This document shows, in pieces, positions 2,188 through 39,694 of a stretch of 64,000 bases of DNA (within the stretch, counting starts at the first letter, position 1; every line of letters starts with the position of its first letter). The stretch covers positions 8,248,001 to 8,312,000 of the forward strand of contig OZ076409.1 in NCBI GenBank assembly GCA_964187785.1. Reading direction: 5' to 3'. This DNA is from Amphiscolops sp. MND2022. Its lineage: Eukaryota. Below the pieces are notes generated by a model. That model saw only the letters and a program-made list of their open reading frames with translations, did no database searches and had not been told where the DNA came from. The position numbers and the translations under genes were made by a program.

Positions 2188-2282
2188 TTTAGAACATTGA
2201 CACTCGAATGACGTACTGTTGACGTGGAGCTCAAGTTGAACGAATTTGAAAACAAAGAAGAGGATAGATATTGTATAGTTGT
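2188..2282 (-). CDS. Gene B exon 8 (phase 0 to 2), TTIQYLSSSLFSNSFNLSSTSTVRHSSVNVL(K)
   Basis: Acceptor attcag|ACA and donor AA|gtttgt. 95 nt = 31 codons + 2. Phase fits the upstream exon, and the 0-to-2 'AA|gt' layout matches exons 3 and 6. Confidence 0.55.
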
Positions 2283-2489
2283 CTGAATTGAATTATTATG
2301 AATAACGCTGTTCTGAATCAAGGCTCTCATTCAAATGAGATCTAGCTGAGAATCTCAGGCTGGACAATCGACAGTTACTTCGACACTTTAATATTTTCCG
2401 CCCACATATAATGGGGCAGGAAAATCTTGATCTGTGTTGCGTTCTTTTTCCAAGTTCTACCAAATCTCCACGATCTCGATAAACTACTT

Positions 2490-2901
2490 GGCTTATTTCT
2501 GTTCCCCCCCCCCCACTACCACCAATTTTTTTTGAAAACTTAGTGAAAATCTTGTGACAAATAGACTTGAATACAAACCAGAAAGCTTCAGTTTTTAGTT
2601 TATACTCAGGGTGATAGTTTAGGATTCAGATACAAACTTTGTTCACACTTTTTCCCTACGTAGTTACGCATTTTTGATGGAGAAATCAACAGCTTCCTGT
2701 TTTGAGTCATCAATTAACACTTGATACGATCATAATTATAGTCAAATTGTGTGAAAAATGCTTTCTTCAAGCGGAAAACCATTCTAATAAAAGTTAGCTT
2801 CCTGTTTGAAAGAAGGTTTTACTTTTAATTAGGCTAGTCTGAAGTTTTTAAGGAAAGTTATTTTTAAATATTTTGGTGGTGGGGGGGGACAGAAAAGAGC
2901 C
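2490..2901. mobile_element. Non-autonomous DNA transposon (MITE), Merlin-like, 8-bp TSD
   Basis: TIRs GGCTTATTTCTGTTCCCCCC / GGGGGGACAGAAAAGAGCC. TSD AACTACTT (2482-2489) / AACTACCT (2902-2909). GG-initiated TIR plus 8-bp TSD is typical of Merlin/IS1016. Confidence 0.75.
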
Positions 2902-3081
2902 AACTACCTGCTTATTTTTATAGTTACTTGACTATTGTTGACTCATACTCGCTCCAGTATGACGTATGCTCAGAATCTCATTCCCGCATACGCTCATTCT
3001 AGTAAATTCGGCATAGTGACGCATTTAGTCACTAGTTTACAACTAATATGTTTAACACTTTCACACATCTACCACACATAC

Positions 3082-3328
3082 TTTATCCACAGTTTCCTTG
3101 AACGATATGGAGCCCTTGGTATCGCGTCGTTGCATCACGTTCTGCCCGTTATTGCGCAACACTGGGGCGGGGCCGACATCGCTTCTGCTTCTGAGAGTGG
3201 TGGCCGCAGTGGCACTCTCAGATATTTCTTCAGAGGGAACCCCCCTGGCGAGTAGCTCTGCGTGACGCATGTCCATGTAAGTGTCATGATGGTGTTTCTT
3301 CTTCGAGGCAAATTCGTCGCAAGATTGG
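3082..3328 (-). CDS. Gene B exon 7 (phase 2 to 0): second inhibitor-2-like helix (DEFASKKKHHHDTYMDMRHAELLA) plus RVxF-like KGSISF
   Basis: Acceptor tttttttcag|C CAA TCT and donor GAT AAA|gtatgt. 247 nt = 1 + 82 codons. Visibly homologous to exon 4. Confidence 0.75.
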
Positions 3329-3382
3329 CTGAAAAAAATCAGGTCCTTTTTTTCCTGCTCCATTTTTCCATTTTGGAACCAA

Positions 3383-3778
3383 CCCCATAACCCCCACAAC
3401 CACCACCATTAATTTTTTTGGAGAATCAGTGAAAATATTACCACCATAAAAAAGACTAAAAACCGCACCAAAAATTTTTAACTTTAAATTTTCCTTTTCA
3501 GGGTGGCAGTTTGGGATCTAAATAGAAACTTTGTTCACACTATTTTCCCTATGAAGTGACCAATTGTTTATTGGGAAATAAACAGCTTCCTGTTTTGAGT
3601 CACAAAAACTGTCAATTTGAACATAATTACAGTGCAAGTGTTTGAAAAAATGTTTTGTTCAAGCAAAAAACTATTGCAGTAGAAGTTAATTTCCTGTTAT
3701 AGACAAAGATTCCTCTTCTCATGAGGCCAGTTTGAATCAGTTTTTGAAATTTTCCATTGAAAAAATTAGACGTTGGGG
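3383..3778. mobile_element. Degenerate copy of the Merlin-like MITE, right end interrupted by an LTR
   Basis: Internal similarity to 2490-2901 (TCAGGGTGGCAGTTTGGGATC, AAACTTTGTTCACAC, AACAGCTTCCTGTTTTGAGTCA). Ends in GGGG directly before TGTAACG. Confidence 0.6.
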
Positions 3779-4890: not shown

Positions 4891-5039
4891 TACAATCTCC
4901 TTTTTTGTTTTTGTGGCTTTAAAAGCCTATTCCCAAGCGTACTCCCATTAGTAAGAACTGAGAAAAATACCCACTGGGTATTCCGATTGTTTTCTGAAAA
5001 AATATAGCGAGCTAGCCATAACACCCTATATAGCTCTAA

Positions 5040-8202: not shown

Positions 8203-8402
8203 NNNNNNNNNNNNNNNNNNNNNNNNNNNNNNNNNNNNNNNNNNNNNNNNNNNNNNNNNNNNNNNNNNNNNNNNNNNNNNNNNNNNNNNNNNNNNNNNNN
8301 NNNNNNNNNNNNNNNNNNNNNNNNNNNNNNNNNNNNNNNNNNNNNNNNNNNNNNNNNNNNNNNNNNNNNNNNNNNNNNNNNNNNNNNNNNNNNNNNNNNN
8401 NN
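8203..8402. other. Assembly gap (200 N)
   Basis: Run of n characters. Confidence 1.
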
Positions 8403-8570
8403 AACAAAAAGAACAATTTATCTGCGCTTTCAGAGAATCTTGTAAAAAATCTCATCTCAGCCATGTCATTGAAACGACATGACCCACCAGAATGGCATGC
8501 GTTCTTCACAAAAAACCTGTGTCGGCCCTTTTCTGTTAAAAACACCCTAAATCCCTGTGTTTAAACCGAA

Positions 8571-9314: not shown

Positions 9315-9391
9315 TTCATATTCTGACTCATACTGTCGGAAATGACAATCTCGGAAGTTCGCAGGTCCACTCCTTCTTCGTTTATTTCAAT
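9315..9391 (-). CDS. Gene B exon 6 (phase 0 to 2), IEINEEGVDLRTSEIVISDSMSQNM(N)
   Basis: Acceptor ttgttgcag|ATT and donor AA|gtgagt. 77 nt = 25 codons + 2. Parallels exon 3. Confidence 0.75.
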
Positions 9392-12015: not shown

Positions 12016-12074
12016 TTTTGATCGTAGTTCTTTGAAACCGACAAGAGATGGTCTCCGAGGTAAATGTGCAGCTT
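12016..12074 (-). CDS. Gene B exon 5 (phase 1 to 0), (E)AAHLPRRPSLVGFKELRSK
   Basis: Acceptor tttttggtttacag|AA and canonical donor AAA|gtaagt. 59 nt = 2 + 19 codons. Bridges exons 4 and 6 in phase. Confidence 0.75.
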
Positions 12075-12380: not shown

Positions 12381-12535
12381 CCTGTGATTTGCTGGAAAAG
12401 TCACCGTCCGAGTTTTCAGCCTTGACATCCAGCATTTCTTCATCGCTCAGAGTGCGAATCGCAATCTCGCGACCTTCTCTGAAATCGATGTAGCTCTCCT
12501 CATAATGCTTTTTCCTTTTCCGGTGGAATTCTGCT
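12381..12535 (-). CDS. Gene B exon 4 (phase 2 to 1): inhibitor-2-like helix AEFHRKRKKHYEESYIDFREGREIAIRTLSDEE
   Basis: Acceptor tttttcag|A GCA GAA. Donor G|gtacaa at 12381 (alternative G|gtgact at 12405, same phase). Resembles PPP1R2 FEMKRKLHYNEGLNIKLARQL. Confidence 0.75.
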
Positions 12536-13208: not shown

Positions 13209-13282
13209 TTTTCGTCGTCTTCTTTTGTGTTTAACTCTACTTCGGATATTTTGGATTGATGGGATTCGTCTTCCGCTTTAAT
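13209..13282 (-). CDS. Gene B exon 3 (phase 0 to 2), acidic IKAEDESHQSKISEVELNTKEDDE(K)
   Basis: Acceptor tttgcattttag|ATT and donor AA|gttagt. 74 nt = 24 codons + 2. Joins exon 4 in frame. Confidence 0.8.
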
Positions 13283-14649: not shown

Positions 14650-17600
14650 AACGTGACAAGTTATTTCACAAATGGATTGAAGATCCCTCTGATGACATTC
14701 GAAATAAGTAGGACGCTATACAGAATAGAATTGCAGAAGAAATCAAAAACGCCAAACGTGAACCTAACTTTTGCAAATTGGGTGACAATCCAACAGTAAA
14801 GAAAGTCTAAAGTTCTCTTAAGTTTCATAAAACGAAAAACCATAAAACAAAAAAACCAAATCATGAAAGACCATGTGTTCATACTCTTAATGATAGCTGT
14901 ACTCAAATTGGGCCAATTTTATCAAATAAGATGAATATTCCATATAAAGATAGCATTCCTAGAAGTTTATCAAAATTGATACCATAGGAAACCACCCCAA
15001 ACGAAGTCTCCAAGATTTTGAAAAGTACAGTACTCGTCCTTTTAGAAACAGTAATGCAATATTGAAGTGCTGCCCACCAATCATTGAAACCTAACTTTGC
15101 ACCTTCAATAATCGATGCATTCAGGAACAGGTGTTTCCACAACAGCAGTTATAGCACTATACAAAAAAGATAACAAACTTTTACCTGAAAACCACCGGCA
15201 CAATAAGTTTGTTGCATTCACGGAGTCTGTGAAGTAAACGGTTACATTCGAAGGAAAATTGATGAAAGAAGTCGTGACAATTCTTGTTTCATTGATATCA
15301 GAAACACATTCGACACCTTACATCAAAAAATATTACTTTTGATGATGACAATTGTGGCTTTAAAGGACCGATATAGAGTCTCAAGGCGAACTATATGTCA
15401 GACCGTTGGCAATACGTAATCCATGATGAAATCAAATCTACAATGAAGTCGATTAGTACAGGTGTCCCACAACGATCATTTTTGGGCACTTCTTGTTTCT
15501 TTTATATATGAACGACTTAGCATAAACCTGTGAAAACAGTAAAACTTATCTTTTGCGGATGATACATCAGTATGCAATATGAATAAAAACTCGGGAAACG
15601 AAATGACCGTTGATATCCAAAAACAACATCTTGGTTTAAACGGAATAAAATAACAGTCAACTGAAGAATGCGGATCTATTGGATCCCGAATTGCGTTACC
15701 AGTGAATAAAAATGCCTTTGGCCAAAAGTTGAGTTGATAAACAGTTGTAAATACTTGGGAATTTCATTTGACAGAAAGCTAGTTAGATTAAAAAAATCAT
15801 ATCGAAATGATCAGAAAGAAGTTAAACAGATTTTGTGGAATAATTTACAAGATACACGAATTGTACCCAAGAAAATGTCTCACTTTTGTCTAAAATTCCT
15901 ACGCTAAGTTTATTTAAATTATGGTCTGCTTGCTTTCGGAGCCACTACAAATGCAAGTTTGGAACTAATTGGGAAAGCTCAGGGGAGGATTGTTTGAGCT
16001 ATGTCTTTTCAAACAATCCGACTCGGTAACCTATGTAATGGAAGAAAATCAGCTGCAACAGTTTTCGAACATCAAATGTACGAATTGTTCCATGAACTGA
16101 TCAACGAAAACAGAAGATTTTCACCAACAACATTTTAGAAATAATTTTTATGCTGCAAAAGTGAACACATGAAGTAGAGAAAAAGGGTTGATTACATCGG
16201 TTTAATTCCGTAGAAAACTCTATCAAACTCAATTGAAAGTATCAAATTTAGAATTCTATTAATGGTTAAAAGAAAAGGGTTTGCTACCAGAAAATATCAA
16301 AAAATTGAATGATGCTAGTTGTTCAGCGCTCAGTAAACAAATCTATTTTGGCCAAAAATTGAGTTGATAAACAGTTGGAAGTACTTGGGAATTTCATTTG
16401 ACAGTAAGCTAGTTAGATTAAAAAAATCATATCAAAATGATCACAAAGAAGTTAAACAGATTTTGTGGAATAATTTACAAGATACGCGAATTGTACCCAA
16501 GAAAATGTCCCACTTTTGTCTATTATTCCCACGCTCAATCTATTATAAATTATGGTCTGCTGGCTTTCGGAGCCACTACAAAAGCAAGTTTAGAACTAGT
16601 TGGGAAAGCTCAGGGGAGGATTTTTTGAGCTACGTCTTTCCAAACAATCCGACTCGCTAACCTATATAATGGACGAAAATCAGCTGCAAACAGTTTTCAA
16701 ACTTCACATCTACGAGTTGTTCCATGAACTGATCAACGAAAACAGAGGATTTTCACCAATAACATTTTAGAAATATTTTTTGCCGCAAAAGTGAACACAA
16801 GAAGTAGAGAAAAAAGGACTGATACCATCGGTTTAAACCCGTAGAAAACTCTATCAAACTCAATTGAAAATATCAATTTTAAAAGTCTATATTTGGTTAA
16901 AAGAAAAAGGGTTTGCTACCAGAAAAGATCAAAAAATTGAATGATGCCAGTTGTTCAGCGCTTAGTAAGCAAATCTGTTTCAGCCAAAAGTTGAGTTGAT
17001 AAACAGTTGGAAGTACTTGGGAATTTCATTTGACAGTAAGCTAGTTAGATTAAAAAATCATATCAAAATGAGCAGAAAGAAGTTAAACAGATTTTGTGGA
17101 ATAATTTACCAGATACGCGAATTGTACCCAAGACAATGTATCACTTTTGTCTATAATTCCTACGCTAAATCTATTATAAATTAAGGTTTGCTGGCTTCCG
17201 GAGCCACTACATAAGCAAGTTTAGAACTAATTGGGAAAGCTAAGCGGAGGCTTTTTCGAGCTATGTCTTTTCGAACAATCCGACTCGCTAACCTTTATAA
17301 TGGAAGAAAATCAGCTGCAACAGTCGTCGAACATCACATGTACGAATTGTTCTATGAACTGATTAACGAAAACAGAGGATTTTCAGCAAAAACATTTTAG
17401 AAATGTTTTTTTGCCGCAAAAGTCAACACAAGAAGTAGAGAAAAAAGAACTGATACCATCGGTTTAAACCTGTAGAAAACTCGATCAAACTCAATTGAAA
17501 ATATCAAACTTAAAACTCTATATTTGATTAAAAGAAAAAGTGTTTGCTACCAGAAAATATCAAGAAATTGAATGATGCTAATTGTTCAGCGCTTAGTAAG

Positions 17601-20600
17601 CAAATCTATTTTGGCCAAAAGTTGAGTTGATAAACAGTTGGAAATACTTGGGAATTTCATTTCACAGTAAGCTAGTTAGATTAAAAAACATATCAAAATG
17701 ATCACAAGAAGTTAAACAGATTTTGTGGAATAATTTACAAGATACGCGAATTGTACCCGAGAAAATGTCTCACTTTTGTTTATAATTCCTACGCTCAATC
17801 TATTATAAATTATGATCTGCAGGTTTTCGGAGCCACTACAAAAGCAAGTTTAGAACTAATTGGGAAAGCTCAGGGGAGGATTTTTTGAGCTATGTCTTTT
17901 CAAGCAATCCGACTCGCTATATAACAACCTATATAATGGAAGAAAACCAGTTGCAACAGTTTTCGAACATCACATGTACGAATTGTTCTATGAACTGATC
18001 AACGAAAACAGGATTTTCACCAATAACATTTTAGAAATATTTTTTTGCCGCAAAAGTGAACACTAGAAGTAGAGGAAAAAGGACTGATACCATCGGTTTA
18101 AACACGTAGAAAACTCTATCAAACTCAATTGAAAATATCAATTTTAAAACTCTATATTCGGTTAAGAGAAAAAGGGTTTGCTACCAGAAAATATCAAAAA
18201 ATTGAATGATGCTAGTTGTTCAGCGCTTAGTAAGCAAATCTGTTTCAGCCAAAAGTTGAGTTGATAAACAGTTGGAAGTACTTGGGAATTTCATTTGACA
18301 GTAAGCTAGTTAGAATAAAAAATCATATCAAAATGATCAGAAAGAAGTTAAACAGATTTTGTGGAATAATTTACCAGATACGCGAATTGTACCCAAGACA
18401 ATGTCTCACTTTTGTCTATACTTCCTACGCTCAATCTATGATAAATTATGATCTGCTGGCTTTCGGAGCCACAACAAAAGCAAGTTTAGAACTAATTGGG
18501 AAAGCTCAGGGGAGGATTTTTTGAGCTATGTCTTTTCAAACAATCTGACTCGCTATATAACAACCTATATAATGGAAGAAAATCAGCTGCAACAGTTTTC
18601 GAACATCACATGTACGAATTGTTCTATGAACTGATCAACGAAAACAGGATTTTCACCAATAACATTTTAGAAATATTTTTTTGCCGCAAAATTGAACACT
18701 AGAAGAAGAGGAAAAGGACTGATACCATCGGTTTAAACACGTAGAAAACTCTATCAAACTCAATTGAAAATATCAATTTTAAAACTCTATATTTGATTAA
18801 GAGAAAAAGGGTTTGCTACCAGAAAATATCAAAAAATTGAATGATGCTAGTTGTTCAGCGCTTAGTAAGCAAATCTGTTTCAGCCAAAAGTTGAGTTGAT
18901 AAACAGTTGGAAGTACTTGGGAATTTCATTTGACAGTAAGCTAGTTAGAATAAAAAATCATATCAAAATGATCAGAAAGACGTTAAACAGATTTTGTGGA
19001 ATGATTTACCAGATACGCGAATTGTACCCAAGACAATGTCTCATTTTTGTCTATAATTCCTACCCTTAATCTAATATGAATTATGGTCTGCTGGCTTCCG
19101 GAGCTACTACATAAGCAAGTTTAGAACTAATTGGGAAAACTAAACGGAGGATTTTTCGAGCTATGTCTTTTCAAACAATCCGACTCGCTAACCTATATAA
19201 TGGAAGAAAATCAGCTGCAACAGTCTTCGAACATCACATGTACGAATTGTTCTATGAACTGATCAACGAAAACAGAGAGTTTTCACCAATAACATTTTAG
19301 AAATGTTTTTTTGCTGCAAAAGTCAACACAAGAAGTAGAGAAAAAAGAACTGATACCATCGGTTTAAACCCGTAGAAAACTCGATCAAACTCAATTGAAA
19401 ATATCAAATTTAAAACTCTATATTTGATTAAAAGAAAAAGGGTTTGCTACCAGAAAATATCAAGAAATTGAATGATGCTAGTTGTTCAGCGTTTAGTAAG
19501 CAAATCTATTTTGGCCAAAAGTTGAGTTGATAAACAGTTGGAAATACTTGGGAATTCCATTTGACAGTAAGCTAGTTAGATTTAAAAAATCATATCAAAA
19601 AGATCACAAAGAAGTTAAACAGATTTTGTGGAATAATTTACAAGATACGCGACTTGTACCCGAGAAAATGTCTCACTTTTGTATATAATTCCTTCGCTAA
19701 GTCTATTATAAATTTTGGTCTTCTGGCTTTCGGAGCCACTACAAAAGCAAGTTTAGAACTAATTGGGAAAGCTCAGGGGAGGATTTTTTGAGCTACGTCT
19801 TTTCAAACAATCCGAATCGCTAACCTATATAAAGGAAGAAAATCAGCTGCAAAAGTTTTCGAACATCACATGTACGAATTGTTCTATGAACTGATCAACG
19901 TAAACAGAGAGTTTTCACCAATAACATTTTAGAAATGTTTTTTGCCGCAAAAGTCAACACAAGAAGTAGAGAAAAAAGAACTGATACCATCGGTTTAAAC
20001 CCGTAGAAAACTCGATCAAACTCAATTGAAAATATCAAATTTAAAACTCTATATTTGATTAAAAGAAAAAGGGTTTGCTACCAGAAAATATCAAGAAATT
20101 GAATGATGCTAGTTGTTCAGCGCTTAGTAAGCAAATCTATTTTGGCCAAAAGTTGAGTTGATAAACAGTTGGAAATACTTGGGAATTTCATTTGACAGTA
20201 AGCTAGTTAGATTTAAAAAATCATATCAAAAAGATCACAAAGAAGTTAAACGGATTTTGTGGAATAATTTACAAGATACGCGAATTGTACCCAAGACAAT
20301 GTCTCACTTTTGTCTATAATTCCTACGCTAAATCTATTATAAATTATGGTCTGCTGGCTTCCGGAGCCACTACAAAAGCAAGTTTAGAACTAATTGGGAA
20401 AGCTCAGGGGAGGATTTTTTGAGCTACGTCTTTTCAAACAATCCGACTCGCTAACCTATATAAAGGAAGAAAATCAGCTGCAAAAGTTTTCGAACATCAC
20501 ATGTACGAATTGTTCTATGAACTGATCAACGTAAACAGAGAGTTTTCACCAATAACATTTTAGAAATGTTTTTTGCCGCAAAAGTCAACACAAGAAGTAG

Positions 20601-23994: not shown

Positions 23995-24636
23995 CAGTCC
24001 TACGCTTTTGTTGAACTCAATGCGTTGCTTAGTTGGTGTCTCATTCTGGTCATGGTCTGATTCTGGTCTGGGGTCAACGGAGGCTGACCTCTTCTCCTGC
24101 TCGGGAGTCTTGCTGCTCTTAGATGTCGAGAAGCTGCTTCCAGGAGTGGTGGTTTCATCCCTAGAGCCTCTTTTCTGTCACCCCCCCCCCCCCTCAACAA
24201 GATTCCTCAAAAATTTGAAAGTAAATTTCTTTAAAAAGGGCAGACTTGCCTAATTAATTAAAAATGAAACCTTCTTTCAAAACATGAAAATAACGTCTAT
24301 TGGAATAGTTTTTTGTTGGTACGAATTGTTTAAACACATTTTGGAGTCATGATATAATTATATTCAAAATAACAGTTTTTTGTGATTCAAAACAGGAAGC
24401 TGTTGATTTCTTCATCAAAAATGCGTGGCTTCATATGCAAAAATAGCGTGAACAAAGTTTTATCTCATTTCTAATCAGTCACCTGAGAAATAAGTTTAAA
24501 ATTGAAGGTTTCTGGTTTGTATTCATGTCTGTTATAATATTTTTAGGTAATTTTCCAAAAAATTAAAAATTGGTTGTGGGGTTAACAGAAAAGAGCCTCC
24601 CTAGATTTTGAACTCCAGGGCCGTGTCGATTCTCTG
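23995..24636 (-). CDS. Gene B exon 2 (phase 2 to 0), interrupted by a MITE; RESTRPWSSKSR/DETTTPGS...TPTKQRIEFNKSVGL
   Basis: Acceptor ttttttcag|C AGA and donor CTG|gttagt. Removing the MITE plus one TSD (440 nt) leaves 202 nt = 1 + 67 open codons. Contains canonical RVxF-type RIEF. Confidence 0.65.
24166..24597. mobile_element. Merlin-like MITE with perfect 8-bp TSD TCCCTAGA, inside exon 2 of Gene B
   Basis: TIRs GCCTCTTTTCTGTCACCCC / GGGGTTAACAGAAAAGAGCC. TSD at 24158-24165 and 24598-24605. Same family as 2490-2901, opposite orientation. Confidence 0.9.
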
Positions 24637-25593
24637 CTGAAAAAACTTCCCATTAGACACATTCAATGAAATGTGTCTAGATGTGCTTCCCTGGATGTGG
24701 GGCATTTGCTTCCGATGTTTTGTACAATTAACAGAAAATCATGGAACATTTTTTCACCCTTAAAAACACTGATTGTAGAAAAAAGCAATAGTAAAAACTG
24801 ACGTGAGCTTTCAGTAGAATCCGAAAAATTCTCAAAATTGATGGCACAAATTTCGAAGCAAATGCTGTTGCAACGAGTTTCAACTTCCAATGAGGAAACA
24901 ATGAAATCACGGCCAATTATGCAATTTTGAATAGTGAAAAGCAATGAAAATGTTGGTTTTACATAGTAAGTAGACTGTGATTAATGATGTTTCATCAAAA
25001 CAGTCCCATTCAATTTCATTCAAAAGTTTCATGTTTTTGTATGGCTGCAGTTCTAACTGCGATCAACGTGAAGGCTATTAGGAGTTCAGTGATGTTTTAC
25101 TTCTGAAGCAGAGTTCCAAAAAAATCTTTGAAAAACCTTTAAAAATTGCTCAAAACGGTAAAATTCAAATCTATATATCTCGAAATCTGCCATAGGTACA
25201 AGAAAAATGTCAGCTAGGAAACTTTCTCAAGAATTTTACCTAGTTCACAAAAAAACTTTTTTGAGATTTATACGACCCTTGTTAAAAGAGTTATAAGTTG
25301 CAAATTTTGGAAAAACTTGGCTCAAGTTTGAGTTCTTTTTCAAAAGTTTTCAGAAATTTTGTTTATTCAGACTCCTTACAACCTGAACCCCCTGAATAGT
25401 CTTTGGTAAAAAAAGTTTTCGCAATAGAAAAGTTATTCATTATTTGCAACCGAAAAATACCAGCAACCCCAGGAGGTTTGGGGGCTAATCATCGGCAGAA
25501 AGGAAATTTATTTTTGATTTTCTTGCAAACTAAAAAAACTGCCATTTCGATTGAGTTTTGTCCCAAACTTACTATTTCTATATTCTGTCATTT

Positions 25594-28500
25594 TTGTGGT
25601 ATCAGTTTCAAACAGACAAACAAACGAACAAATTACAGAAAAAATTCATAATACTTTCCCAGCTGACGATTTTTTGTTTTCGTAAAAGTTTTCAAGATAT
25701 TTGGATTTATATTTAGCTTTAGGAAAAATTTTGTTTTAAGCAAGGCAGTTGCTATATTTTAGAAGGTTGACTTCAACTTGTGACATATGCAGACCTGACC
25801 TCTAAACTCTCAACCGCTAATACGGACATCAGACGATGAGACATTTGGTGCTACTGACCAACAAAACTCTAATTGCTGTATATTTTTGTTATTTAGATAC
25901 GTAGTCATTTACAATACACATTGATACAGCGAGTAGCTACTCTGTTACTATAGCAAACTCTTAAACAGAAAACATTGTTTTAACCCAGTTCTTTGAGATT
26001 ACAACATGACACAGTAAGCAAGATTCATTTTTAATCGTGTAACATCGAATCTTAACCAACCAAGAAAACATGACCACCGTCAAGAACAATATACAACTAC
26101 CCTACCTCGAAGACACCGGACTTGACGGCAAAAAACTGTATACACTGAAAGCATGGACGGAGCGACTACGACACTACATCAAACGAACTCATGATATAGA
26201 CATGAAACCAGCATTATCCGGGGAAACAATACCAACAAGCAACAGATGGAAGGAAAAAGAATCGGAAATAAGACAAGATCTTATCTGGGGAGCCGGACCA
26301 TCGTCTATTGGAAACATAATTAAAAAAGAATTCAACACAGACCCGGATACAATCAATACAAAAAGATTACTACAACTATTCAAAGACTACTGCATACCCA
26401 AACGGAGTACATATCACAGCCGCGGGGATTTCTTCTGGGCAAAACAAGAAGAAAACGAAAACCCAGAAGAACATTGGAGAAAATTGGTCTCTCTCGAAAA
26501 AAAATTGCGAATTCAAGGACATCATCAAACAAGAAGACCTGCTTATCTCAAAATTCATCACTAGTGTCACCGATAAAAAATTACGGGAAAAACTCATCCG
26601 CGAGAAAACACTGAATATCAAAACAACAATGGACTTAGTAACCCAAAACAGCTACGAGAAAAGACATGAACAATCCACAATACCTGCAGCACTCGTAAAA
26701 GAGAAAGAAGTAAAACAGGAACCAATACAGAAAATACACAAAAACTACCAACCAAACAAAAACACACACACCGGAAGACCAACACAAAAGAAAAACGATT
26801 GCGGATTCTGCGGACAATAAAATTGGACACCATCACGTAAATGCCCAGAAAAAACGGCACAATGCAACAACTGCCACAAACTGGGACACTTTGCAAGAGT
26901 ATGCTGCAGCAATACCGAAAAGATGAGAAAAAGAGTAAACTACATCGAGGAAACACATGACAACGAAGAAGAAGAAAGCGAACCCGAAAAAATTAGACAA
27001 ATAACACAAGTTAACCGGATACTACCAAACGAAAGCGACCATTAAGAAATCGAATTGAAAATAAACGGGAAATACCAGAACTGCACAATCGATACCGGAT
27101 CTCCCGTACCCATAGTGCCAAACAACCTAAAAATTTACGAACAGAAAGATATTCAACCGCTGGGAGTGAGATACCAAGACGTGAACAAAATCGTGATTAA
27201 ATTCTTGGGTAAAATCTGGGCTAACATCGAATACAATGGTGAAATCACAAAGTTACCAATACTCATTACGCAAAGAAACTACATTACACATTTATTAGGT
27301 GTGAATTGTTAAAAAAATACCAATTACCACCAACAAAATTTTACTGGACGAGAAGACCAGCCAATCAGAAGACATCCACACAAAATTCAACAAACTGTTC
27401 GAAACGAATCACACAATCAAGAATACGGAAATAAAAAGAATAATAAAACCACGATGCTACCCGATCCAACAAAAAGCCATACCAAGACGATATCACCTGC
27501 AACAAGATGTGAAAAATGAGTTAGACCGATTAATAAAGTGTGGTATCACTTTCAAACAGACAAACAAACGAACAAATTACACAAAAAATTCATAATACTT
27601 TCCCAGCTGACGATTTTTTGTTTTCGTAAAAGTTTTCAAGATATTTGGATTTATCTTTAGCTTTAGGAAAAATTTTGTTTTAAGCAAGGCAGTTGCTATA
27701 TTTTAGAAGGTTGACTTCAACTTGTGACATATGCAGACCTGACCTCTAAACTCTCAACCGCTAATACGGACATCAGACAGGGAGACATTTGGTGCTATTG
27801 ACCAACAAAACTCTAATTGCTGTATATTTTTGTTATTTAGATACGTAGTCATTTACAATACACATTGATACAGCGAGTAGCTACTCTGTTACTATAGCAA
27901 ACTCTTAAACAGAAAACATTGTTTTAACCCAGTTCTTTGAGATTACAACATGACACAGTAAGCAAGATTCATTTTTAATCGTGTAACATCGAATCCTAAC
28001 CAACCAAGAAAACATGACCACCGTCAAGAACAATATACAACTACCCTACCTCGAAGACACCGGACTTGACGGCAAAAAACTGTATACACTGAAAGAATGG
28101 ACGGAGCGACTACGACACTACATCAAACGAACTCATGATATAGACATGAAACCAGCATTATCCGGGGAAACAATACCAACAAGCAACAGATGGACGGAAA
28201 AAGAATCGGAAATAAGATAATCTGGGGAGCCGGACCATCGTCTATTGGAAACATAATTAAAAAAGAATTCAACACAGACCCGGATACAATCAATACAAAA
28301 AGATTACTACAACTATTCAAAGACTACTGCATACCCAAACGGAGTACATATCACAGCGGCGGGGATTTCTTCTGGGCAAAACAAGAAGAAAACGAAAACC
28401 CAGAAATTATTGGAGAAAATTGGTCTCTCTCGAAAAAAAACTGCGAATTCAAGGACATCATCAAACAAGAAGACCTGCTTATCTCAAAATTCATCACTAG

Positions 28501-31410
28501 TGTCACCGATAAAAAATTACGGGAAAAACTCATCCGCGAGAAAACACTGAATATCAAAACAACAATTGACTTAGTAACCCAAAACAGCTACGAGAAAAGA
28601 CATGAACAATCCACAATACCTGCAGCACTCGTAAAAGAGAAAGAAGTAAAACAGGAACCAATACAGAAAATACACAAAAACTACCAACCAAACAAAAACA
28701 CACACACCGGAAGACCAACACAAAAGAAAAACGATTGCGGATTCTGCGGACAATAAAATTGGACACCATCACGTAAATGCCTAGCAAAAATGGCACAATG
28801 CAACAACTGCCACAAACTGGGACACTTTGCAAGAGTATGCTGCAGCAATACCGAAAAGATGAGAAAAAGAGTAAACTACATCGAGGAAACACATGACAAC
28901 GAAGAAGAAGAAAGCGAACCCGAAAAAATTAGACAAATAACACAAGTTAACCGGATACTACCAAACGAAAGCGACCATTAAGAAATCGAATTGAAAATAA
29001 ACGGGAAATACCAGAACTGCACAATCGATACCGGATCTCCCGTACCCATAGTGCCAAACAACCTAAAAATTTACGAACAGAAAGATATTCAACCGCTGGG
29101 AGTGAGATACCAAGACGTGAACAAAATCGTGATTAAATTCTTGGGTAAAATCTGGGCTAACATCGAATACAATGGTGAAATCACAAAGTTACCAATACTC
29201 ATTACGCAAAGAAACTACATTACACATTTATTAGGTGTGAATTGTTAAAAAAATACCAATTACCACCAACACAATTTTACTGGACGAGAAGACCAGCCAA
29301 TCAGAAGACATCCACACAAAATTCAACAAACTGTTCGAAACGAATCACACAATCAAGAATACGGAATTAAAAGAATAATAAAACCACGATGCTACCCGAT
29401 CCAACAAAAAGCCATACCAAGACGATATCACCTGCAACAAGATGTGAAAAATGAGTTAGACCGATTAATAAAGTGTGGTATCACTTTCAAACAGACAAAC
29501 AAACGAACAAATTACAGAAAAAATTCATAATACTTTCCCAGCTGACGATTTTTTGTTTTCGTAAAAGTTTTCAAGATATTTGGATTTATATTTAGCTTTA
29601 GGAAAAATTTTGTTTTAAGCAAGGCAGTTGCTATATTTTAGAAGGTTGACTTCAACTTGTGACATATGCAGACCTGACCTCTAAACTCTCAACCGCTAAT
29701 ACGGACATCAGACAGAGAGACATTTGGTGCTACTGACCAACAAAACTCTAATTGCTGTATATTTTTGTTATTTAGATACGTAGTCATTTACAATACATAT
29801 TGATACAGCGAGTAGCTACTCTGTTACTATAGCAAACTCTTAAACAGAAAACATTGTTTTAACCCAGTTCTTTGAGATTACAACATGACACAGTAAGCAA
29901 GATTCATTTTTAATCGTGTAACATCGAATCTTAACCAACCAAGAAAACATGACCACCGTCAAGAACAATATACAACTACCCTACCTCGAAGACACCGGAC
30001 TTGACGGCAAAAAACTGTATACACTGAAAGAATGGACGGAGCGACTACGACACTACATCAAACGAACTCATGATATAGACATGAAACCAGCATTATCCGG
30101 GGAAACAATACCAACAAGCAACAGATGGACGGAAAAAGAATCGGAAATAAGACAAGATCTTATCTGGGGAGCCGGACCATCGTCTATTGGAAACATAATT
30201 AAAAAAGAATTCAACACAGACCCGGATACAATCAATACAAAAAGAATACTACAACTATTCAAAGACTACTGCATACCCAAACGGAGTACATATCACAGCG
30301 GCGGGGATTTCTTCTGGGCAAAACAAGAAGAAAACGAAAACCCAGAAATTATTGGAGAAAAATTGGTCTCTCTCGAAAAAAAACTGCGAATTCAAGGACA
30401 TCATCAAACAAGAAGACCTGCTTATCTCAAAATTCATCACTAGTGTCACCGATAAAAAATTACGGGAAAAACTCATCCGCGAGAAAACACTGAATATCAA
30501 AACAACAATGGACTTAGTAACCCAAAACAGCTACGAGAAAAGACATGAACAATCCACAATACCTGCAGCACTCGTAAAAGAGAAAGAAGTAAAACAGGAA
30601 CCAATACAGAAAATACACAAAAACTACCAACCAAACAAAAACACACACCGGAAGACCAACACAAAAGAAAAACGATTGCGGATTCTGCGGACAATAAAAT
30701 TGGACACCATCACGTAAATGCCCAGCAAAAACGGCACAATGCAACAACTGCCACAAACTGGGACACTTTGCAAGAGTATGCTGCAGCAATACCGAAAAGA
30801 TGAGAAAAAGAGTAAACTACATCGAGGAAACACATGACAACGAAGAAGAAGAAAGCGAACCCGAAAAAATTAGACAAATAACACAAGTTAACCGGATACT
30901 ACCAAACGAAAGCGACCATTAAGAAATCGAATTGAAAATAAACGGGAAATACCAGAACTGCACAATCGATACCGGATCTCCCGTACCCATAGTGCCAAAC
31001 AACCTAAAAATTTACGAACAGAAAGATATTCAACCGCTGGGAGTGAGATACCAAGACGTGAACAAAATCGTGATTAAATTTTTGGGTAAAATCTGGGCTA
31101 ACATCGAATACAATGGTGAAATCACAAAGTTACCAATACTCATTACGCAAAGAAACTACATTACACATTTATTAGGTGTGAATTGTTAAAAAAACCCCAA
31201 TTACCACCAACACAATTTTACTGGACGAGAAGACCAGCCAATCAGAAGACATCCACACAAAATTCAACAAACTGTTCGAAACGAATCACACAATCAAGAA
31301 TACGGAAATAAAAAGAATAATAAAACCACGATGCTACCCGATCCAACAAAAAGCCATACCAAGACGATATCACCTGCAACAAGATGTGGAAAATGAGTTA
31401 GACCGATTAT
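25594..31410 (+). repeat. Tandem triplication (~1.94-kb unit): host flank + 5' LTR + gag + protease + start of RT
   Basis: Unit start TGTGGTATCA(G/C)TTTCAAACAG at ~25594, ~27539 and ~29474. LTR copies at 25779-26006, 27723-27950 and 29658-29885. Confidence 0.95.
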
Positions 31411-34400
31411 TAAAATCCGGTCACTTTGAAAGATTGGAAACAATCGAAGAAGACTGTTTTGTATCCCCCGTAGTAGCTACGGCGATGAAAGACAAAACTG
31501 TAAAAATTGCTTTTGATGCTAGAAAACTAAACGAATGTTGCGTAAAAAAAAGACCGCACATGCAAAACATGGACGAATTATTGAACCAGATTTTCGCAGA
31601 ATTGTCAAGGAATGCCTATGGACAGAAGAAACTAGCACCGGAAACCAGCAAACACTGCATTTTCGCCGTTACAAGAAAAAACTCGAATGGATATTACCGA
31701 TTCCTAAAAGGCTTTTACGGTCCTGTCGACATACCCACAATTTTCCAAAAAAAACAGACAGAACACTCGGACACCAAGCATCCGTTTGGCTAGACGACAT
31801 CATCATTGTAACCCGGGGAACAAAAGAAGGACATACCCGAAATTTATATTCGGTACAAACGAAACTAGAAAACGAAGGATACAAAGCAAGTAAAAAGAAA
31901 TCAAAATTTTACCAAAAAGATACAAGATGGCTCGGACACAAAATCTCACAGGATGGAATCAGACCCAACAAAGAAAAAACAGACGCAATAAACAAATTAA
32001 AACACCCCACAAACCCGAAAACATTGAAGTATTTTCTCTCGGCCATCCATTACTTCGCAAAATTCATACCGAATCTTTCCAAAACGACCGACAACATGAG
32101 ACAACTACTAAAAAAGGAACAAAAAGGAATTGGACCGATGAACGCAACACAGAATTCAACAAAATAAACGAAGTATTAACTTCTCTACCGTGCCAAGCCC
32201 ACTACAACGGAGGTGAAGAAACCATCGTCACTACGGACGCTGGCAACACCGGACTGGGAGTGGCCTTATGGCAAAAGCAGAACAATGGAGAATTAAAACC
32301 TATCGCAGTTGCCAGCTGCTACGTAAATGATACAGAAAAGAAATATTCCATCGGTAATTTGGAATTACTAGCCGCTGCTTGAGGACTACAGAGATTCCGA
32401 TTCTACCTATACCTGAAACAAATTCAACTATTCCCGGATCACCAAACACATTATTGAAAAGAAACAAAACCAACAAACAGTACAGCGCACGGCTAACAAG
32501 ATGGCTAGGTAGACTAAACCACTTCGATATCAGTTTAAAACACACTGCCGGGAAAGAATTAAAAATCACGGACTTTATCAGTCGAAATCCAACCAAAAAC
32601 CCGGAATCGGAAGAACAATACGGGGAATAAAGTGTGATCAGCGCCATCGCGCTACTAGCAACGTTAACCGCCCGCATAGGACGGATTTTCAACCAATCAA
32701 AAACCGAGATCACGGACAGCGAAACGAATATGCATAATATTTGCACGCTAATTGATACGTGACGCTACCGAGCAAACAAAAGCCACACTGATTCCAATAA
32801 CCATTCATTACAGCCGCTTGAAAACGAAATAACCGTGAATCATCCGAGAATGAACAACAACAATGATGAGAATCAAAACGCAAGACAGTCCCTAAATGAC
32901 CGGCAAATACGTTACCATTGGGGTGCAGATGATGCTATTATGGCAATAATCAACAGCAGAGAAAAATCACCCGAAACTACGGAGCTAGTAAGGAGACGAA
33001 CTGAAGTGGCAAGACCCGGAGCAATGAGACCGCAATGGAATAGAGAATAGAGGCCTGGGCAGAGAAATATATGTGCCAACAAGACCGAAAGAAGGGAAAT
33101 AAAAAGAATTGACATCCAACTGAAAAAAAAACAAGAGCAATCACAGATCGGCGGCGGATTTTTCAGAAACTTCGACGACGAAATACCGCAAAGACCGGAA
33201 AACACGAACGAAAACAGAGACTCAGAGACGACCACATCATCGAAAACCGAAGAAGCCGTGACAATACACGAACCCGGAGCCTACCCTGTAATACCTGGTC
33301 AGGAATACTGCGACGGCACCATTTAGGACATAGCCGTACACCATGTCCGGATAAATCGAGTGGTTGAACAAAAAGCCACCAGAAAGAAACAATAGGGGGA
33401 CAATATTAGGGCAGCTGAACTGGATTTTATGCTGGACTTGGAGACACTAATCAAAGAGACGGCCGCTGACCCAGACTTGATAAAACTAAATTGCTGCCTC
33501 GAAGACAATAACAGCAACCAAATCCCGCACGACTACAGAACTGTAGCCAAACAGCTGACCCACAGATGGGGCATAATCATGGTAGATGACCCTATCATTG
33601 GACCCAAAACATTACGCTACGCCGCTCTAAACGCCCTACACTTCGGCCATCCCGGAATCAACAAGATGTGTAGCGATGCTGCCATATTCTGGTGGCCGAA
33701 CATGCGGACTGATATTGAAAAGAAAGCAAAAACCTGCTCAGCTTGCCTCAACGCCGGTAAGAATTTAAAGTTCTAAATACCTTTAACCGAAAAAAAACGA
33801 AAATTGAAACACCGAAAAAGCCGAGTGAAGAAATTCAAATCGATATACGTGCTAAGATTTACGATACACTCTGAAACCAAAAAGACACCGTTCGCAATAC
33901 ATTTCGCACGGGAACCCAGAACTAAATTATCTAACATACAAAGTGCTGTTTCAGTAGACTCAAAAGACCTCTCGGTCTACACTACCCGAAATTCGGCGGG
34001 AAAAATAACGGATCACCTAGTGATGTCAAAAAAGAAGACTGTGGATCCCAAATACAAACGAGGGATGACGTTCCAGGAAACCAAAAAACCGACTGTTTTG
34101 GTTAGTATAAACAAATTTGAATATCCTCTTAAATTCTATGAAAAGAAATTTTAAAAAAGATCACTAGAAAGCAAAGTCAAGAATAGAACACAAACCGCAG
34201 TATCAGGTACGGAACACACCGTAACTACAAGCAAAAATAAAATAATACATAGAAAACTAATTTCCAACCCGTTGCCCTTTCAGCAGACAATCACCGCACC
34301 TAAAAAGCGAATAAGCACCCGGGAAAATGACCAACCAACCCGCTCAAAGAACTTAGACACGACCATCGCCAGTGGAAACCCGTGTATCTACAGGCCAAAA

Positions 34401-35178
34401 GAGACCCCACAGCTAATAAACCACGAGAGAAGCGAATATTGGCTAAAAAAAACAGAACAGCCCAGAAACAACAAGGGCCAATTCACGTCACCGAGCAAAA
34501 ACACAGAAGAGATGGAAACAGACCTGAATTTAAGCATCGTGTCGGACGAAGAGTTTGATTGCTGTAAAAAGTCCGAAGGAAAACCGGTTCAAACCAACAT
34601 CGATGACGAACTTCATTTGCTTCTAAAAGACAACAAACTAACTCCCGGCCAAGGTACTTATGAAGGAAGAAATAAAACAACTGAACCGCAAACATTGGTC
34701 AGAAGATCAAACAGACTACCATTTCCAAAACAAACCGAAAAACTAGGCGGTGTACCATACCAAAAATAATAACAATAGAAAGAAACAAACTGTTAAAGGT
34801 AATGTATTGCAGGAAAAAACGGCTACAACAACAAGGGAGACTGAAGACGAAAACCACCGCTCAGTTTGGCAAGAAACCTAAAAAATCTGTACAATACGGC
34901 ACTACAACAACGATAGGCGATTCCCACACGGACAAACCCGGAGAGGGGGGAATGTGACATATGCAGACCTGACCTCAAACTCTCAACCGCTAATACGACC
35001 ATCAGGCAGAGAGACATTTGGTACTATTGACCAACAAAACTCTAATTGCTCTCTATTTATGTTATTTAGATACGTAGTCATTTACAATACACATTGATAC
35101 AGCGAATAGCTACTCTGTTACAATAATGAACTCTTAAAGAGGAAACATTGTTTAAACCCAGTTTTTGAGATTACAACA
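25779..35178 (+). mobile_element. Gypsy/Ty3 LTR retrotransposon (Mag-like), inactivated
   Basis: ~228-bp LTRs TGTGAC...ACAACA, with the 3' LTR at 34953-35178. PPT GGAGAGGGGGGAA. TSD CAACT/CAACC. Decayed PBS TGACACAGTAAGCAAGATTC. Domain order gag-PR-RT-RH-IN. Confidence 0.93.
29949..34769 (+). pseudogene. Gag-pol pseudogene
   Basis: Two Zn knuckles (CGFCGQ*..C, CNNCHKLGHFARVC), protease IDTGS, RT WLDDIII, RNase H TTDAGNTGLG/YSIGNLELLA, integrase HHCC (LHFGHPG...CSAC). Many stops and frameshifts; integrase DDE core appears deleted near 33845. Confidence 0.92.
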
Positions 35179-35243
35179 CAACCCACTAGTGAAACACAAC
35201 ACAGCATACATAAAGCATCGCATTGGAACTAGCAAGGCTACTA

Positions 35244-35587
35244 GGTGAACCAGAAAATGGAACGTGCAAAAATTCTCTCAAAGTTTCAAATATTTACCAA
35301 TAAAAGTTTCACAACATCTTTGAGCGCTGCAGTCAATCATTCAAGTTGGCAACTTTTCTTCGAAGCGACAGAACTTTCACACATTAAAAGTGAAAATGAA
35401 ATGACTGGTCAAGACGTCTGCAATGTTTCTGAAGGTTCGAACCATCCGTAGTTGAAGATGTGTTTACGTAGCGGGAGCTTCATTCTAAATGATTGACAAA
35501 AAAATGAACGATTTTCAAGTTCTTGTTTACAAATAATACAATTTTGAAGACGCAAATTTTTGTACGTTCTGTTCGTTTTGGTTCACC
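35244..35587. mobile_element. TA-flanked MITE
   Basis: Imperfect TIRs taGGTGAACCAGAAAATGGAACGTGCAAAAATT / AATTTTTGTACGTTCTGTTCGTTTTGGTTCACCta. A related end lies at ~36450-36476. Confidence 0.55.
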
Positions 35588-36138
35588 TATAGATCGTTTC
35601 AAAAAGTTCGCGAGACTAGAACTAATCAATCGTCGCTGACAATACCATGTGTAAAGTCAAAAAATAAATGTCGACGGCACCAGTTAACTCTCCTATCTTT
35701 TTGAGCATTCGTAAGAACGTCTTGTATAGCAACACGATTTCGAATGTCGGGATTTTTTAAAAAAACGGTGTCCGTGGCATTGGAGAAAAGTCGTCTGGCT
35801 GTAAGCAGAAGGTCAGAAAGCCGGAATTTCGAGTTTCGATTAACGCGGCCCAGAAGCTGACGCTTGATTTTTCTTGTGAGTACAGATTTTTGACCCAATT
35901 TGCCTTTTTCTGCCCAATACGTTGCTTCAGGATTCCTCTAAATGTTGTCTCCGAAATCGAGAAATTCTGAGCAATTGCTGAGTTTGCATAATCCGGGTTT
36001 GCATCTTTAAAACGGTATATCGATTTTGCAAGGTCGTCAGATGTGCGTTTGCCTCGCATGGTTGCAGAAATTGATATCATAACATCGCTAATTAAAAGAC
36101 TGGTACCTAGTCTCGCGAACTTTTTGAAACGATCTATA
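35588..36138 (-). mobile_element. Internally deleted Tc1/mariner element with transposase N-terminal remnant
   Basis: Perfect 32-bp inverted repeat including flanking TA (35588-35619 / 36107-36138). Minus-strand frames MRGKRTSDD...AIAQNFSIS (HTH-like) and LTNAQKDRRVNWCRRH...IVSDD (start of the DDE domain), frameshifted. Confidence 0.85.
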
Positions 36139-39100
36139 ATATGAAACATGTCATTGTGCCCTTTGCTGCACGGCGTAGAACTCAAATGCCTTTTAAACCA
36201 GCCTTAGCATGACAACCAAAGCTTGAAAAACTCACAAGCATTTTTCTGAAGGCATCAATGGATCCACAACTGACTATGAATGAGAAGTTAGTGTTTTTCT
36301 AAAATTCTTGTTTCAGTACAAAATCGACATCAGAAATATTTTACAAGGAAAAAGTTCGAAAAAAACATTAACTCAATTGAGACCGTTTTCGAGCTTTGGG
36401 AACGATTCAGAAAAAAATCCAAACCTTGTATGGCAGCTACGGCTCACAATTTTTGTACAGAACCACGGTTCACCATATCAATGATAGCATTCAGACCAGC
36501 GACAAAATCCAAACTGATCTGGATTGTCAAAACTAATCGAGATCACTAACATTTTCAATATGCGTAGAACAAGCCGGGAACGGCATGAGTCGGCGAACAG
36601 CAAATGACTTGGCTCTCGTTTTCTGTAACAATAATTCTGGTTTGATCCCCAGAATAAATCTTCTTGTACTTCGATTTTTTTCCGGACCATCCGGTTCCTG
36701 GCATTTCTTCTCCTTCTAGTAGTGGAATAATATCCATTTTGTGTTCTCCCTTGATGAACTGACCCCTGGTCGAAACTACAGGAACTATTTACATGCAGCA
36801 TTAAAGCGCGCAGGCTAATTTATTTTAAAAACATAGAAAATTCACAGACCATGCATGGAAAATTCTTGCAAAACTTCCCTGCAGCTTAGAAATCCTGGCA
36901 GCATTTTCCTGCGCTTTGAAAAAATGTCCAAGCTGCTTAAAGCAATTTTGAAAAAAAATCCATGCAAGACTGTAAACATTTTCTTCAAAAACGACCGTTT
37001 TCTTAGCCCAAAAAAAATTCAGATATACGAATTTGTTTGCCACACTGGCACACGCAAAAATTTTGTTTACATCATATTGTAGCTTCAGCACTCGCAACAT
37101 TTGAGATTTTACCCGTAAAAACATGAAAAATTTTGCGGGGAATTTCTCTTGAACTTTCTTGATGTTGTTCTGAAAACCCGCCAAATTGTATAGAAATCCT
37201 AATAAATATTTGAAAAAATAGCATTGCATCATGGAAATATTTAGCATTAATGATTCTCTATGAAACTCTAAAAATCATGCTAAAAATGCTTGGTAGCCTA
37301 TAAAATCATGTAAAAGTTTCAAGCAGTTTCAACTAGGGACACTAATCTTTTTAAGTATTGTCTCAGCGTAAATACCGGATTCCCGGCCACCATTTTGGTT
37401 TCTAGTTTCAGTCCTCTACGTTTTTCTACTATGTTTGGTTGTTGTTCTCGTAGTAAGATTATTTCCGGCTCAATTTATTAAAAATTGGCTGAGTGTGCCA
37501 TGTTCTTATCTAAGGTTAAGGTTGCAAAAACGCGAATTATTGAAATGAGCCTTTTTCTAAGCAACTGGCCGTAACAAAACAAATGAATATATTTTTAATA
37601 TACTTCTAACACTAATGTAATGTTTGATAGTAAACATCTCACTAGTCTTTGAGACTGAAACTTGGTAGGTTCATTGGCGTTGCCCGCATTTCACTTCAAA
37701 GCGTCAAGGATGCTCTTTTGAATGAATTCTCATTTTCACACTACCAAAAAGAAAAGAAGTGGACCTTTGGAATCAAAAGGGCTTTTTTCCGTTTTTCTCA
37801 CTAGAAACATCAGAAACCAAAGCTTTTGTGCTTTTTTTGTGCTTCTTCCCCCACCTGAAACATCAGAAAAAAAGCAAAAAATATTTTTGGGAACTGAAAA
37901 TTTTCCCTGAAAAAGCCCAACAAGGTACAAAACTCCAATGCAGGGAACCATTGACCTTAGAAGTGCTTCTTTGTTTTTATACCCAAGAGAAACATGAGAA
38001 AACCAATGCTGTTTTGCTTCTCCTCCCACATGAAGCATTAGAAAAACAAACCGAGAACCCTTTTTGGAAATGAAAAATTTCCCTATAAATTGCAGTGCCA
38101 AAAAATCCAAAGGATAGACCCTTCGGTTTTGAAAAAACTCTTTTAAACTAAAATGCAAAAAAAAACAGAGGATCCTTTTGGAAAAGTGAGATTTTTGAGG
38201 AAAAGTAGCAAAGAATAAAACCCGAAGGGGCGGCCTTTGGGCTTAAAAACGCTGTTTTGAGAAAATATCAAAAATACCAAGGGGGACCCATTGGAAAAAT
38301 TGAAAAATTCCGAAAAAAATCTCAAAACAAAAACAAAACGAAAAGACCTCGTTTTTAGTTAAATAATTTTGTCAAAGATTGACAATTTGCTATTTTGTAG
38401 GATTTTTGTATTTTGGCATTCGGCACGAAATGTCACTATAACAGTCGTGTTTTATTTCATAAAGCGCCAAATGAAACCTGTCGAGTAATTGGAACTCAGC
38501 TGACATAAAGTTAATGGAACTTTTTCCTTCCCCCCCCCCATACTTTTCAAGATGATGTTTTTGCAATTAACTATATCTCAATTGCGTTTCCAATGAAACA
38601 GTTCAGTTTTAACTTTATTCTCAGGGTGATAGTTTAGGATTCAGATACAAACTTTGTTCACACTTTTTCCCTATGTAGTTACGCATTTTTGTTTTGAGTC
38701 ATCAATAAACACTCAATACGAACATAATTAGTCAAATTGTGTGTGTCGATACTCGACCGGCGTTGGTTCGATCCCCGATATTGACCGATCTTTCTGAAAC
38801 CGTAAAAGTAAAAATTGATTTTTCAAATATTATTCGAAATTTGCTATCTCGAATTGTCTGTAATTCAGCTTCAATTCTGCCGTCGATGAAATACCTTGGA
38901 GTCCGTACCATTAAAAACGCACTATCAATTTCTACGACAAAAATTTCTCATAGTAATTTAAACGGTTGGTTGGCCATAAACTATCATCTAAACGATATAC
39001 CACCCGATATATTTCCTTTTCACTTTTTCCACCCGAAAAGAAAACAGATAAATGCTTCTATCAGACCAAACACCAATTTCTAGATCGAATCTTCGGCGAT

Positions 39101-39445
39101 ATTTATTCAAAGAAAATAAAATAGCATAGCTATCATAGCATGTAAAAAGGAAGCATAAAAAAGATAGCAGAGCATGTAAAATACTTCGGCTTTTTTCCGA
39201 ACACCTGAAAGGTACTATAAAATTACATTAAACTCCGAGAATATCTGAAATTCAAGTTTCGGATTTCATCTGATATTTTTAAAGATGAATCTCGACTGGA
39301 GCCTTTGTGTTTTTTAGCAGTCATCACGAATTATCCCCCATTCTTGTATTTAAATACAAAGAAATTTGTTAATTTCTAAAATTTCACATGACTTGAGTTG
39401 GCTCAATTGGTTCAATCGATTTTGAAACTGCACAGAATTTCTCAC

Positions 39446-39694
39446 GCTAAGGTTGTTTTCGAGTTTTCAACATGACGCAGAAATTCTCCTTTTTTTTCTT
39501 CGCAAGCTTCGTTTGTTTTCCCTTCCTTTGGACTAAGAGCTGTTGGTATGTTGGTCTCATTGCACTGAGTAACATTGACCTTCTTCTGTTTGTTTGAAAA
39601 CATCTGGTGAATCATATGAAAATAATTGTACGGTTCATCGGCGCCATATGTCTTGAAAAGTCCTTTTGTGACATGTTTATTTTTTTCTGGCAAC
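39446..39694 (-). CDS. Gene B exon 1 as visible (phase 2 to 2), LPEKNKHVTKGLFKTYGADEPYNYF...KTTL(A)
   Basis: Acceptor atgttttag|G TTG and donor GC|gtgaga. 249 nt. Phase fits exon 2. Upstream connection uncertain. Confidence 0.6.

Follow-up and report, generated by a model that had tools for sequence, protein, structure and literature searches.

A candidate inhibitor-2 paralog with a threefold C-terminal half in the acoel Amphiscolops

Introduction

Inhibitor-2 (PPP1R2) is one of the oldest regulators of protein phosphatase 1 (PP1), and whether it acts as an inhibitor, a chaperone or a hand-off factor is still debated (PMC11561318, 10.64898/2026.03.15.711929). A stretch of 64,000 nucleotides from Amphiscolops sp. 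MND2022 (contig OZ076409.1, positions 8,248,001 to 8,312,000), hereafter the window (G000:C1:8248001-8312000 of the 1.07-Gb genome), raises the question of whether an inhibitor-2-like protein can be built from repeated units. A first-pass annotation had proposed that the window holds a minus-strand gene of eight exons encoding such a repeated module. The gene is real and is larger than that annotation had seen. Judged by its sequence and by that of its relatives, it is a conserved, unannotated and new architecture within the inhibitor-2 family.

Results

A nine-exon gene that extends beyond the window

The gene is a minus-strand chain of nine exons (E1 to E9) that spans 85 kb and keeps 415 codons open with no frameshift, or 389 codons when counted from the first in-frame ATG. 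Exon positions are given in window numbering unless prefixed with G000.

E1, 39446..39694, minus strand: probable first coding exon, phase 2-2, acceptor at 39694, first in-frame ATG at 39615
E2, 23995..24160, minus strand: phase 2-0, motif 1 (RIEF) at its end
E3, 13209..13282, minus strand: linker exon of unit 1, phase 0-2
E4, 12381..12535, minus strand: helix 1 (inhibitor-2 IDoHA-like, core HYEE), phase 2-1
E5, 12016..12074, minus strand: motif 2 (VGF) after RRPS, phase 1-0
E6, 9315..9391, minus strand: linker exon of unit 2, phase 0-2
E7, 3082..3328, minus strand: helix 2 (degenerate, core HHDT) and motif 3 (ISF) after RRDT, phase 2-0
E8, G000:C1:8203808-8203708, minus strand: phase 0-2, linker of unit 3; outside the window, 44-45 kb to its left
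E9, G000:C1:8202708-8202588, minus strand: helix 3 (core HYGE), phase-2 acceptor, ends in TGA

The five peptides quoted by the first-pass annotation all lie on the minus strand at the places it implied, and E1 to E7 have the AG and GT ends and the phases that it gave. Its eighth exon (2282-2188) was rejected and is most likely intronic: its summed splice-site score is -2.0 (with generic approximate weights, not trained on Amphiscolops), it worsens the match to each of the two orthologs spanning this region, and the chain matches the ortholog P0121, described below, with 136 bits when it is included and with 155 bits when E8 takes its place. When the whole genome was searched with E4, the exon of helix 1, a single further match appeared, 45 kb to the left of the window. 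This is E9, and it places a third helix behind a phase-2 acceptor on the side where one had been predicted. E8 lies about 1 kb upstream of E9 and is the best of the six listed phase 0-2 candidates between E7 and E9 (summed site score 9.8). Two AATAAA signals follow the E9 stop, 202 and 247 nt 3' of it.

E1 has 83 open codons and AG/GT sites at the 94th percentile, the splice sites of E5 are at the 99-100th percentile, and E6 is the sole candidate to pass a scan of the E5-E7 interval. For E2, a shorter donor at 24004 was rejected because the longer one fits P0121 better (155 versus 150 bits). E1 to E7 all lie in sequence that is not repeated within the 234 kb compared, and 48% of the span of the gene consists of repeats. 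The E6-E7 intron is interrupted by an assembly gap of 200 N (8203-8402).

Acoel relatives support the chain

The three helix exons were combined into a profile and compared with 1.84 billion representatives. Of the 10 matches, three were kept as members of the family: P0121, XP_063727504.1 and XP_075254682.1; the two RefSeq proteins are the matches P0124 and P0125. Among the others, P0122 is the gene call of E9 itself, P0130 is a canonical inhibitor-2, and P0123 and P0126-P0129 were dropped as unrelated repeats (P0126 judged by eye alone). P0121 is a protein of 317 aa with three helices, encoded on a contig of 1155 nt; given the kilobase introns of the Amphiscolops gene, we infer that this contig is a spliced transcript. 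The chain aligns colinearly with P0121 (34% identity over 321 columns, E 3.6e-49), which bears out the proposal of repeated inhibitor-2-like units in a multi-exon gene. The Smith-Waterman score of this pair is 400, compared with a maximum of 99 in 300 shuffles and with 98 for the best canonical inhibitor-2. The match supports E2 to E9, including the join over the 200-N gap; E1 is outside the coverage of P0121. Identical residues number 14/46 of those aligned in E2 (a count that takes in a piece upstream of a transposable element described below), 4/24 in E3, where all 24 residues align, 18/43 in E4, 9/19 in E5, 7/21 in E6 and 12/23 in E8. When the genome was searched with P0121, the three helix exons were the top three of five matches, each unit falling on the corresponding exon, and no second copy of the gene was found.

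The two other relatives are annotated in RefSeq as 'uncharacterized protein' and have two helices each: XP_063727504.1 (Symsagittifera roscoffensis LOC134855056) has those of units 1-2 and XP_075254682.1 (Convolutriloba macropyga LOC142346069) those of units 2-3. Both models are likely partial. P0121 and these two proteins have orthologous units, motifs and their order in common with the Amphiscolops gene, whose helices differ from those of both named orthologs. The three-helix family has so far been seen in acoel-type records alone. A word-based protein search with E7 returned nothing at E<=1 among 48 candidates, and one with P0121 returned only P0121 itself among 1706, though both RefSeq orthologs are in the collection, so this kind of search is insensitive here. 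A metagenome scan with the helix alignment gave 436 pattern matches, of which none was confirmed. Against PDB sequences, P0121 had no match at E<=10, and E7 matched just a uridine kinase at E 0.15, which we took as chance. Foldseek with the P0121 model gave nothing at E<=0.001, a result that is uninformative for a disordered chain.

Three units built from exon blocks

Both E3-E4-E5 and E6-E7 are blocks that begin and end in phase 0, in line with the exon-block build suggested by the first-pass annotation, and E8-E9 runs from phase 0 to the stop. The three units resemble one another (z 4.9-8.9; none of 1000 shuffles attains the score). Helix 1 is nearest to its counterpart in both orthologs with a helix 1, which implies that the triplication preceded the divergence of these species. 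Duplication of exon blocks bounded by phase 0, before these acoel lineages diverged, is the likely origin of the repeat.

The units are not equally well preserved. The His-Tyr core is present in units 1 and 3 and is kept in seven of the seven ortholog helices; in unit 2 it is His-His. Helix 2 thereby has H, and at another position K, where Y and R are invariant in 102/102 inhibitor-2 helices. Its orthologous helices are intact; P0121 has three intact helices, and the Amphiscolops gene has a degenerate second one. Helices 1 and 3 are as conserved as in the orthologs. An AlphaFold model of the ortholog P0121, based on a 6-row alignment, is disordered except for three kinked helices (pLDDT about 80-88).

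A paralog, not the ortholog, of inhibitor-2

The same genome contains a canonical inhibitor-2 gene, 89 Mb away.

G000:C1:97110300-97142920, plus strand: canonical inhibitor-2 gene with KGILK, a DEMNILAT region, IDEPKTP and one helix

Its introns lie after LDAQ (phase 0, probable GC donor, after the second coding exon) and inside the helix (phase 1). The intron positions of the new gene differ from these, and we rejected a direct copying of the present-day exon blocks of the canonical gene because the positions do not fit.

Several comparisons tie the new gene to the family. The only PDB sequence that E4, the exon of helix 1, matches at E<=10 is PP1 inhibitor-2 (2o8a_I, E 0.38). The ortholog P0121 passes the Pfam family IPP-2 (PF04979, curated cut-off 25 bits) with 40.2 bits over three stretches; P0125 reaches 23.2 bits, P0124 15 bits and E9 20 bits (E 0.0012), which is below the cut-off. 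On an in-house profile of 108 inhibitor-2 homologues the spliced chain gives three domains, of 8.9, 9.3 and 18.6 bits. The SILK motif, present in the canonical gene, is absent from the chain and from all three orthologs, and the IDEPxTP site is likewise absent from the chain and from 3/3 orthologs. No part of the chain matches the profile of the native RVxF-like/DEMNILAT region, on which its motifs score -18 to -38. Because a complete canonical gene lies elsewhere in the genome and the new gene lacks SILK and IDEPxTP, we regard the latter as an inhibitor-2 paralog of different build, not as an inhibitor-2 ortholog. Plasmodium inhibitor-2 is likewise described as lacking SILK (PMC3735429).

Phe motifs and kinase-type sites

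A hydrophobic-x-Phe motif stands 31-45 residues ahead of the helix Phe in 8/8 motifs found and in none of 120 canonical homologues; the pattern was written from these same sequences, so that the 8/8 is partly by construction. No match to it was found ahead of the first helix in XP_063727504.1 or in XP_075254682.1. The conserved Phe may be a newly evolved docking residue. Basic-basic-x-Ser/Thr sites, which we take to be PKA-type sites, precede motif 3 in all three proteins that have unit 3, and precede motif 2 in Amphiscolops only.

The 5' end of the gene

The junction of E1 and E2, the weakest of the chain, is complicated by a miniature inverted-repeat transposable element (MITE).

MITE, 24166..24597, no strand assigned: 432 bp, 12-bp terminal inverted repeats, perfect 8-bp target-site duplication

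Most other copies with both ends found also have target-site duplications (7-8 of 8). Members of this family, of about 400-440 bp, occur also at about 2490-2900 and 3360-3760, so that copies flank E2 and E7. Genome-wide there are 3733 candidates, of which 40 were scored, and the best other copies are 74-79% identical. Ahead of the MITE are a phase-2 acceptor at 24636 and 13 open codons, which suggests an insertion within exon 2 or at its start, but the same arrangement is found at 12% of random positions. Read-through into the MITE meets a stop.

E1 is a tentative member of the gene. Its first in-frame ATG gives M-I-H, as at the start of XP_063727504.1, and its similarity to that protein is not significant (335 of 5000 shuffles attain it, p about 0.07; no BLAST alignment). 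It does not match the inhibitor-2 profile, which led us to reject it as the inhibitor-2 N-terminal region. We also rejected E1 as a continuation of the upstream open reading frame 41493-40101, in which no phase-2 donor scores above zero. A search for a short first exon of myristoylation type, as at the start of P0121, found none. E1 starts 406 nt after the stop of that upstream frame, and its acceptor at 39694 may be a trans-splice site. Exact matches to a part of the spliced leader of acoels (PMC9911081) number 154 in the genome, and the reversed control has none, which marks this as an acoel-type genome with trans-splicing genes. E1 also contains a 20-codon upstream open reading frame (39674-39612, minus strand), the stop of which overlaps the first in-frame ATG.

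Surroundings and other loci

Upstream of E1, long Ser/Pro-rich open frames (41493-40101, 44822-43647 and 59118-58360, minus strand) belong to a gene with no notable Pfam match; the distance from its end to E1 is operon-like. The E1-E2 intron holds a decayed region resembling the gag/pol of a long-terminal-repeat retrotransposon (25500-35200, plus strand; labelled by eye), in which a 1.94-kb segment is present three times at 97-99% identity. In the E2-E3 intron, positions 15700-22100 consist of ten head-to-tail copies of a 631-bp unit. Single copies of this unit lie on many contigs, and the array is therefore a local tandem amplification of a dispersed element. Elsewhere in the genome, a PP1 catalytic subunit gene (G000:C4:74619000-74633000, minus strand) has two large coding exons that are 89-92% identical to the PP1 of locus L034.

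Discussion

A proposed multivalent PP1 binder

The reading that we favour, and hold to be reasonably probable, is that the gene encodes an acoel paralog of inhibitor-2 in which the C-terminal half is present threefold, giving a disordered, multivalent binder by which two to three PP1 molecules would be stored or inhibited without the phospho-cycle of inhibitor-2. The repeat unit consists of a short conserved hydrophobic-x-Phe motif, an acidic linker and an active-site helix. Each helix would cover the active site of PP1 in the way known from the inhibitor-2 complex, and the motif Phe would dock in the RVxF groove as a non-canonical replacement. One chain could then bind as many as three PP1 catalytic subunits, though in Amphiscolops the number is probably two because helix 2 is degenerate. 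Lacking the IDEPxTP phospho-switch, the protein would be a sink or store of PP1 rather than a factor that cycles like inhibitor-2, and the basic-basic-x-Ser/Thr sites before the motifs could be kinase-controlled release switches. We favour a storing or inhibiting multivalent binder because of published results on the helix and the motifs. The IDoHA helix covers the PP1 active site, and binding in human cells depends on its HYNE core (PMC11561318, 10.64898/2026.03.15.711929); changing HYNE to AAAA abolishes PP1 binding, whereas SILK and RVxF changes merely reduce it (PMC11561318); and in worms PP1 is trapped by an inhibitor-2 whose RVxF motif is mutated (10.64898/2026.03.15.711929). A more specific version is possible, and we put it forward tentatively: a calpastatin-like trap in which a new non-canonical RVxF-groove motif replaces SILK and RVxF, three units hold three PP1, and basophilic kinases control release.

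Several results weigh against this reading. Both RefSeq orthologs show just two helices. Scored on a profile built from inhibitor-2 helices only, helix 2 reaches 0.6 bits, compared with 10.2 for helix 1 and 23.4 for helix 3. None of the five window exons scanned singly matches Pfam IPP-2. The E1-E2 junction is weak, since the E2 acceptor is at the 13th percentile and lies in the right-hand target-site duplication of the MITE. The motifs that had been called RVxF-like are indeed conserved, but the strict pattern, which we take to be [RK]-x(0,1)-[VI]-x-[FW], fits one of three here (motif 1) and none of five in the orthologs. RVxF motifs are often not strictly conserved (PMC9813921). By spacing and profile, moreover, they map to the LDxxxLAxKL segment of inhibitor-2 and not to its RVxF site. 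Finally, isolated HYNE or RVxF peptides bind Plasmodium PP1 but do not inhibit it (PMC3735429).

Alternative readings

The mapping of the motifs gives rise to the most serious alternative. The helices would bind PP1, the Phe motifs would be a remnant of LDxxxLAxKL outside the RVxF groove, and the protein would clamp PP1 already held on RVxF adaptors, thereby inhibiting or clustering holoenzymes. The distance from motif to helix is that of the LDxxxLAxKL segment (median 42 residues ahead of the inhibitor-2 helix) and not that of the RVxF site (median 88). On the profile of LDxxxLAxKL, the motif of unit 2 comes 3rd among 401 windows, 1st among 303 and 1st among 274, and ternary complexes are described in which neurabin takes the RVxF groove from inhibitor-2 (PMC11561318). 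All scores on this profile are nonetheless negative and units 1 and 3 rank lower, and the Phe present in every motif, where inhibitor-2 has Ala, Pro or Ser, looks like a new docking residue. We find this alternative doubtful.

It is unlikely, rather more so than a remnant of LDxxxLAxKL, that the three units serve one PP1 at a time, whether by avidity, by alternative phospho-regulated registers or by isoform preference. Such a role would suit units that are not equivalent, with helix 2 degenerate here and helix 1 of a distinct type. Against it, a disordered stretch of 85-115 residues separates the Phe of one helix from that of the next, in the Amphiscolops protein and in P0121, which would leave room for separate PP1 molecules.

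The state of exon 2 and of helix 2 could also mean that the family is functional and the Amphiscolops allele crippled, with the MITE blocking splicing at exon 2 and unit 2 decaying. The poor acceptor within the target-site duplication, the stop met by read-through and the R-to-K and Y-to-H changes in helix 2 are what this would predict. We consider it quite improbable given the 415 codons that stay open over nine exons with no frameshift, the conservation of helices 1 and 3 and the lack of a second gene copy in the genome. Least probable is a change of partner, in which helices of true inhibitor-2 ancestry would have come to bind a different PPP phosphatase or a kinase or to act as a basic nuclear-import signal: their C-terminal halves differ from inhibitor-2 and the genome has 11 other PPP-like matches (31-60% identity), but units 1 and 3, like the ortholog helices, retain the active-site core with its basic residues, His and Tyr.

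Comparison with known systems

A natural variant that keeps only the active-site helix, triplicated, without SILK, native RVxF or phospho-switch, would separate the functions of inhibitor-2 and offer ready test modules. It would also annotate the two 'uncharacterized' acoel proteins of RefSeq and suggests that their models are partial. We found no multi-helix or acoel inhibitor-2 paralog in the literature searched, the scope of which excluded subscription journals and supplements.

The new protein resembles inhibitor-2 (PPP1R2, PF04979, 2o8a chain I) in its IDoHA-type helix with an F-x3-R-K-x-H-Y core, in the acidic disordered linker ahead of the helix and in its predicted overall disorder. 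It differs in having three helices instead of one, in lacking SILK, the KSQKW/DEMNILAT region and the IDEPxTP site, and in its hydrophobic-x-Phe motif ahead of each helix. Duplication of the helix has a precedent in P0066 (a Logan cluster of three proteins), a canonical inhibitor-2 whose two HYNE helices stand 78 residues from each other, the only such case among 120 homologues examined. Like the new gene, P0066 has a tandemly duplicated active-site helix; unlike it, P0066 keeps the whole canonical N-terminal half, and its duplication is apparently independent of the acoel triplication. In its working, the closest parallel is calpastatin, which is also disordered and has tandem inhibitory domains, each able to inhibit (PMC5358782). 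Calpastatin targets calpain proteases, and the analogy is one of working only, with no homology claimed.

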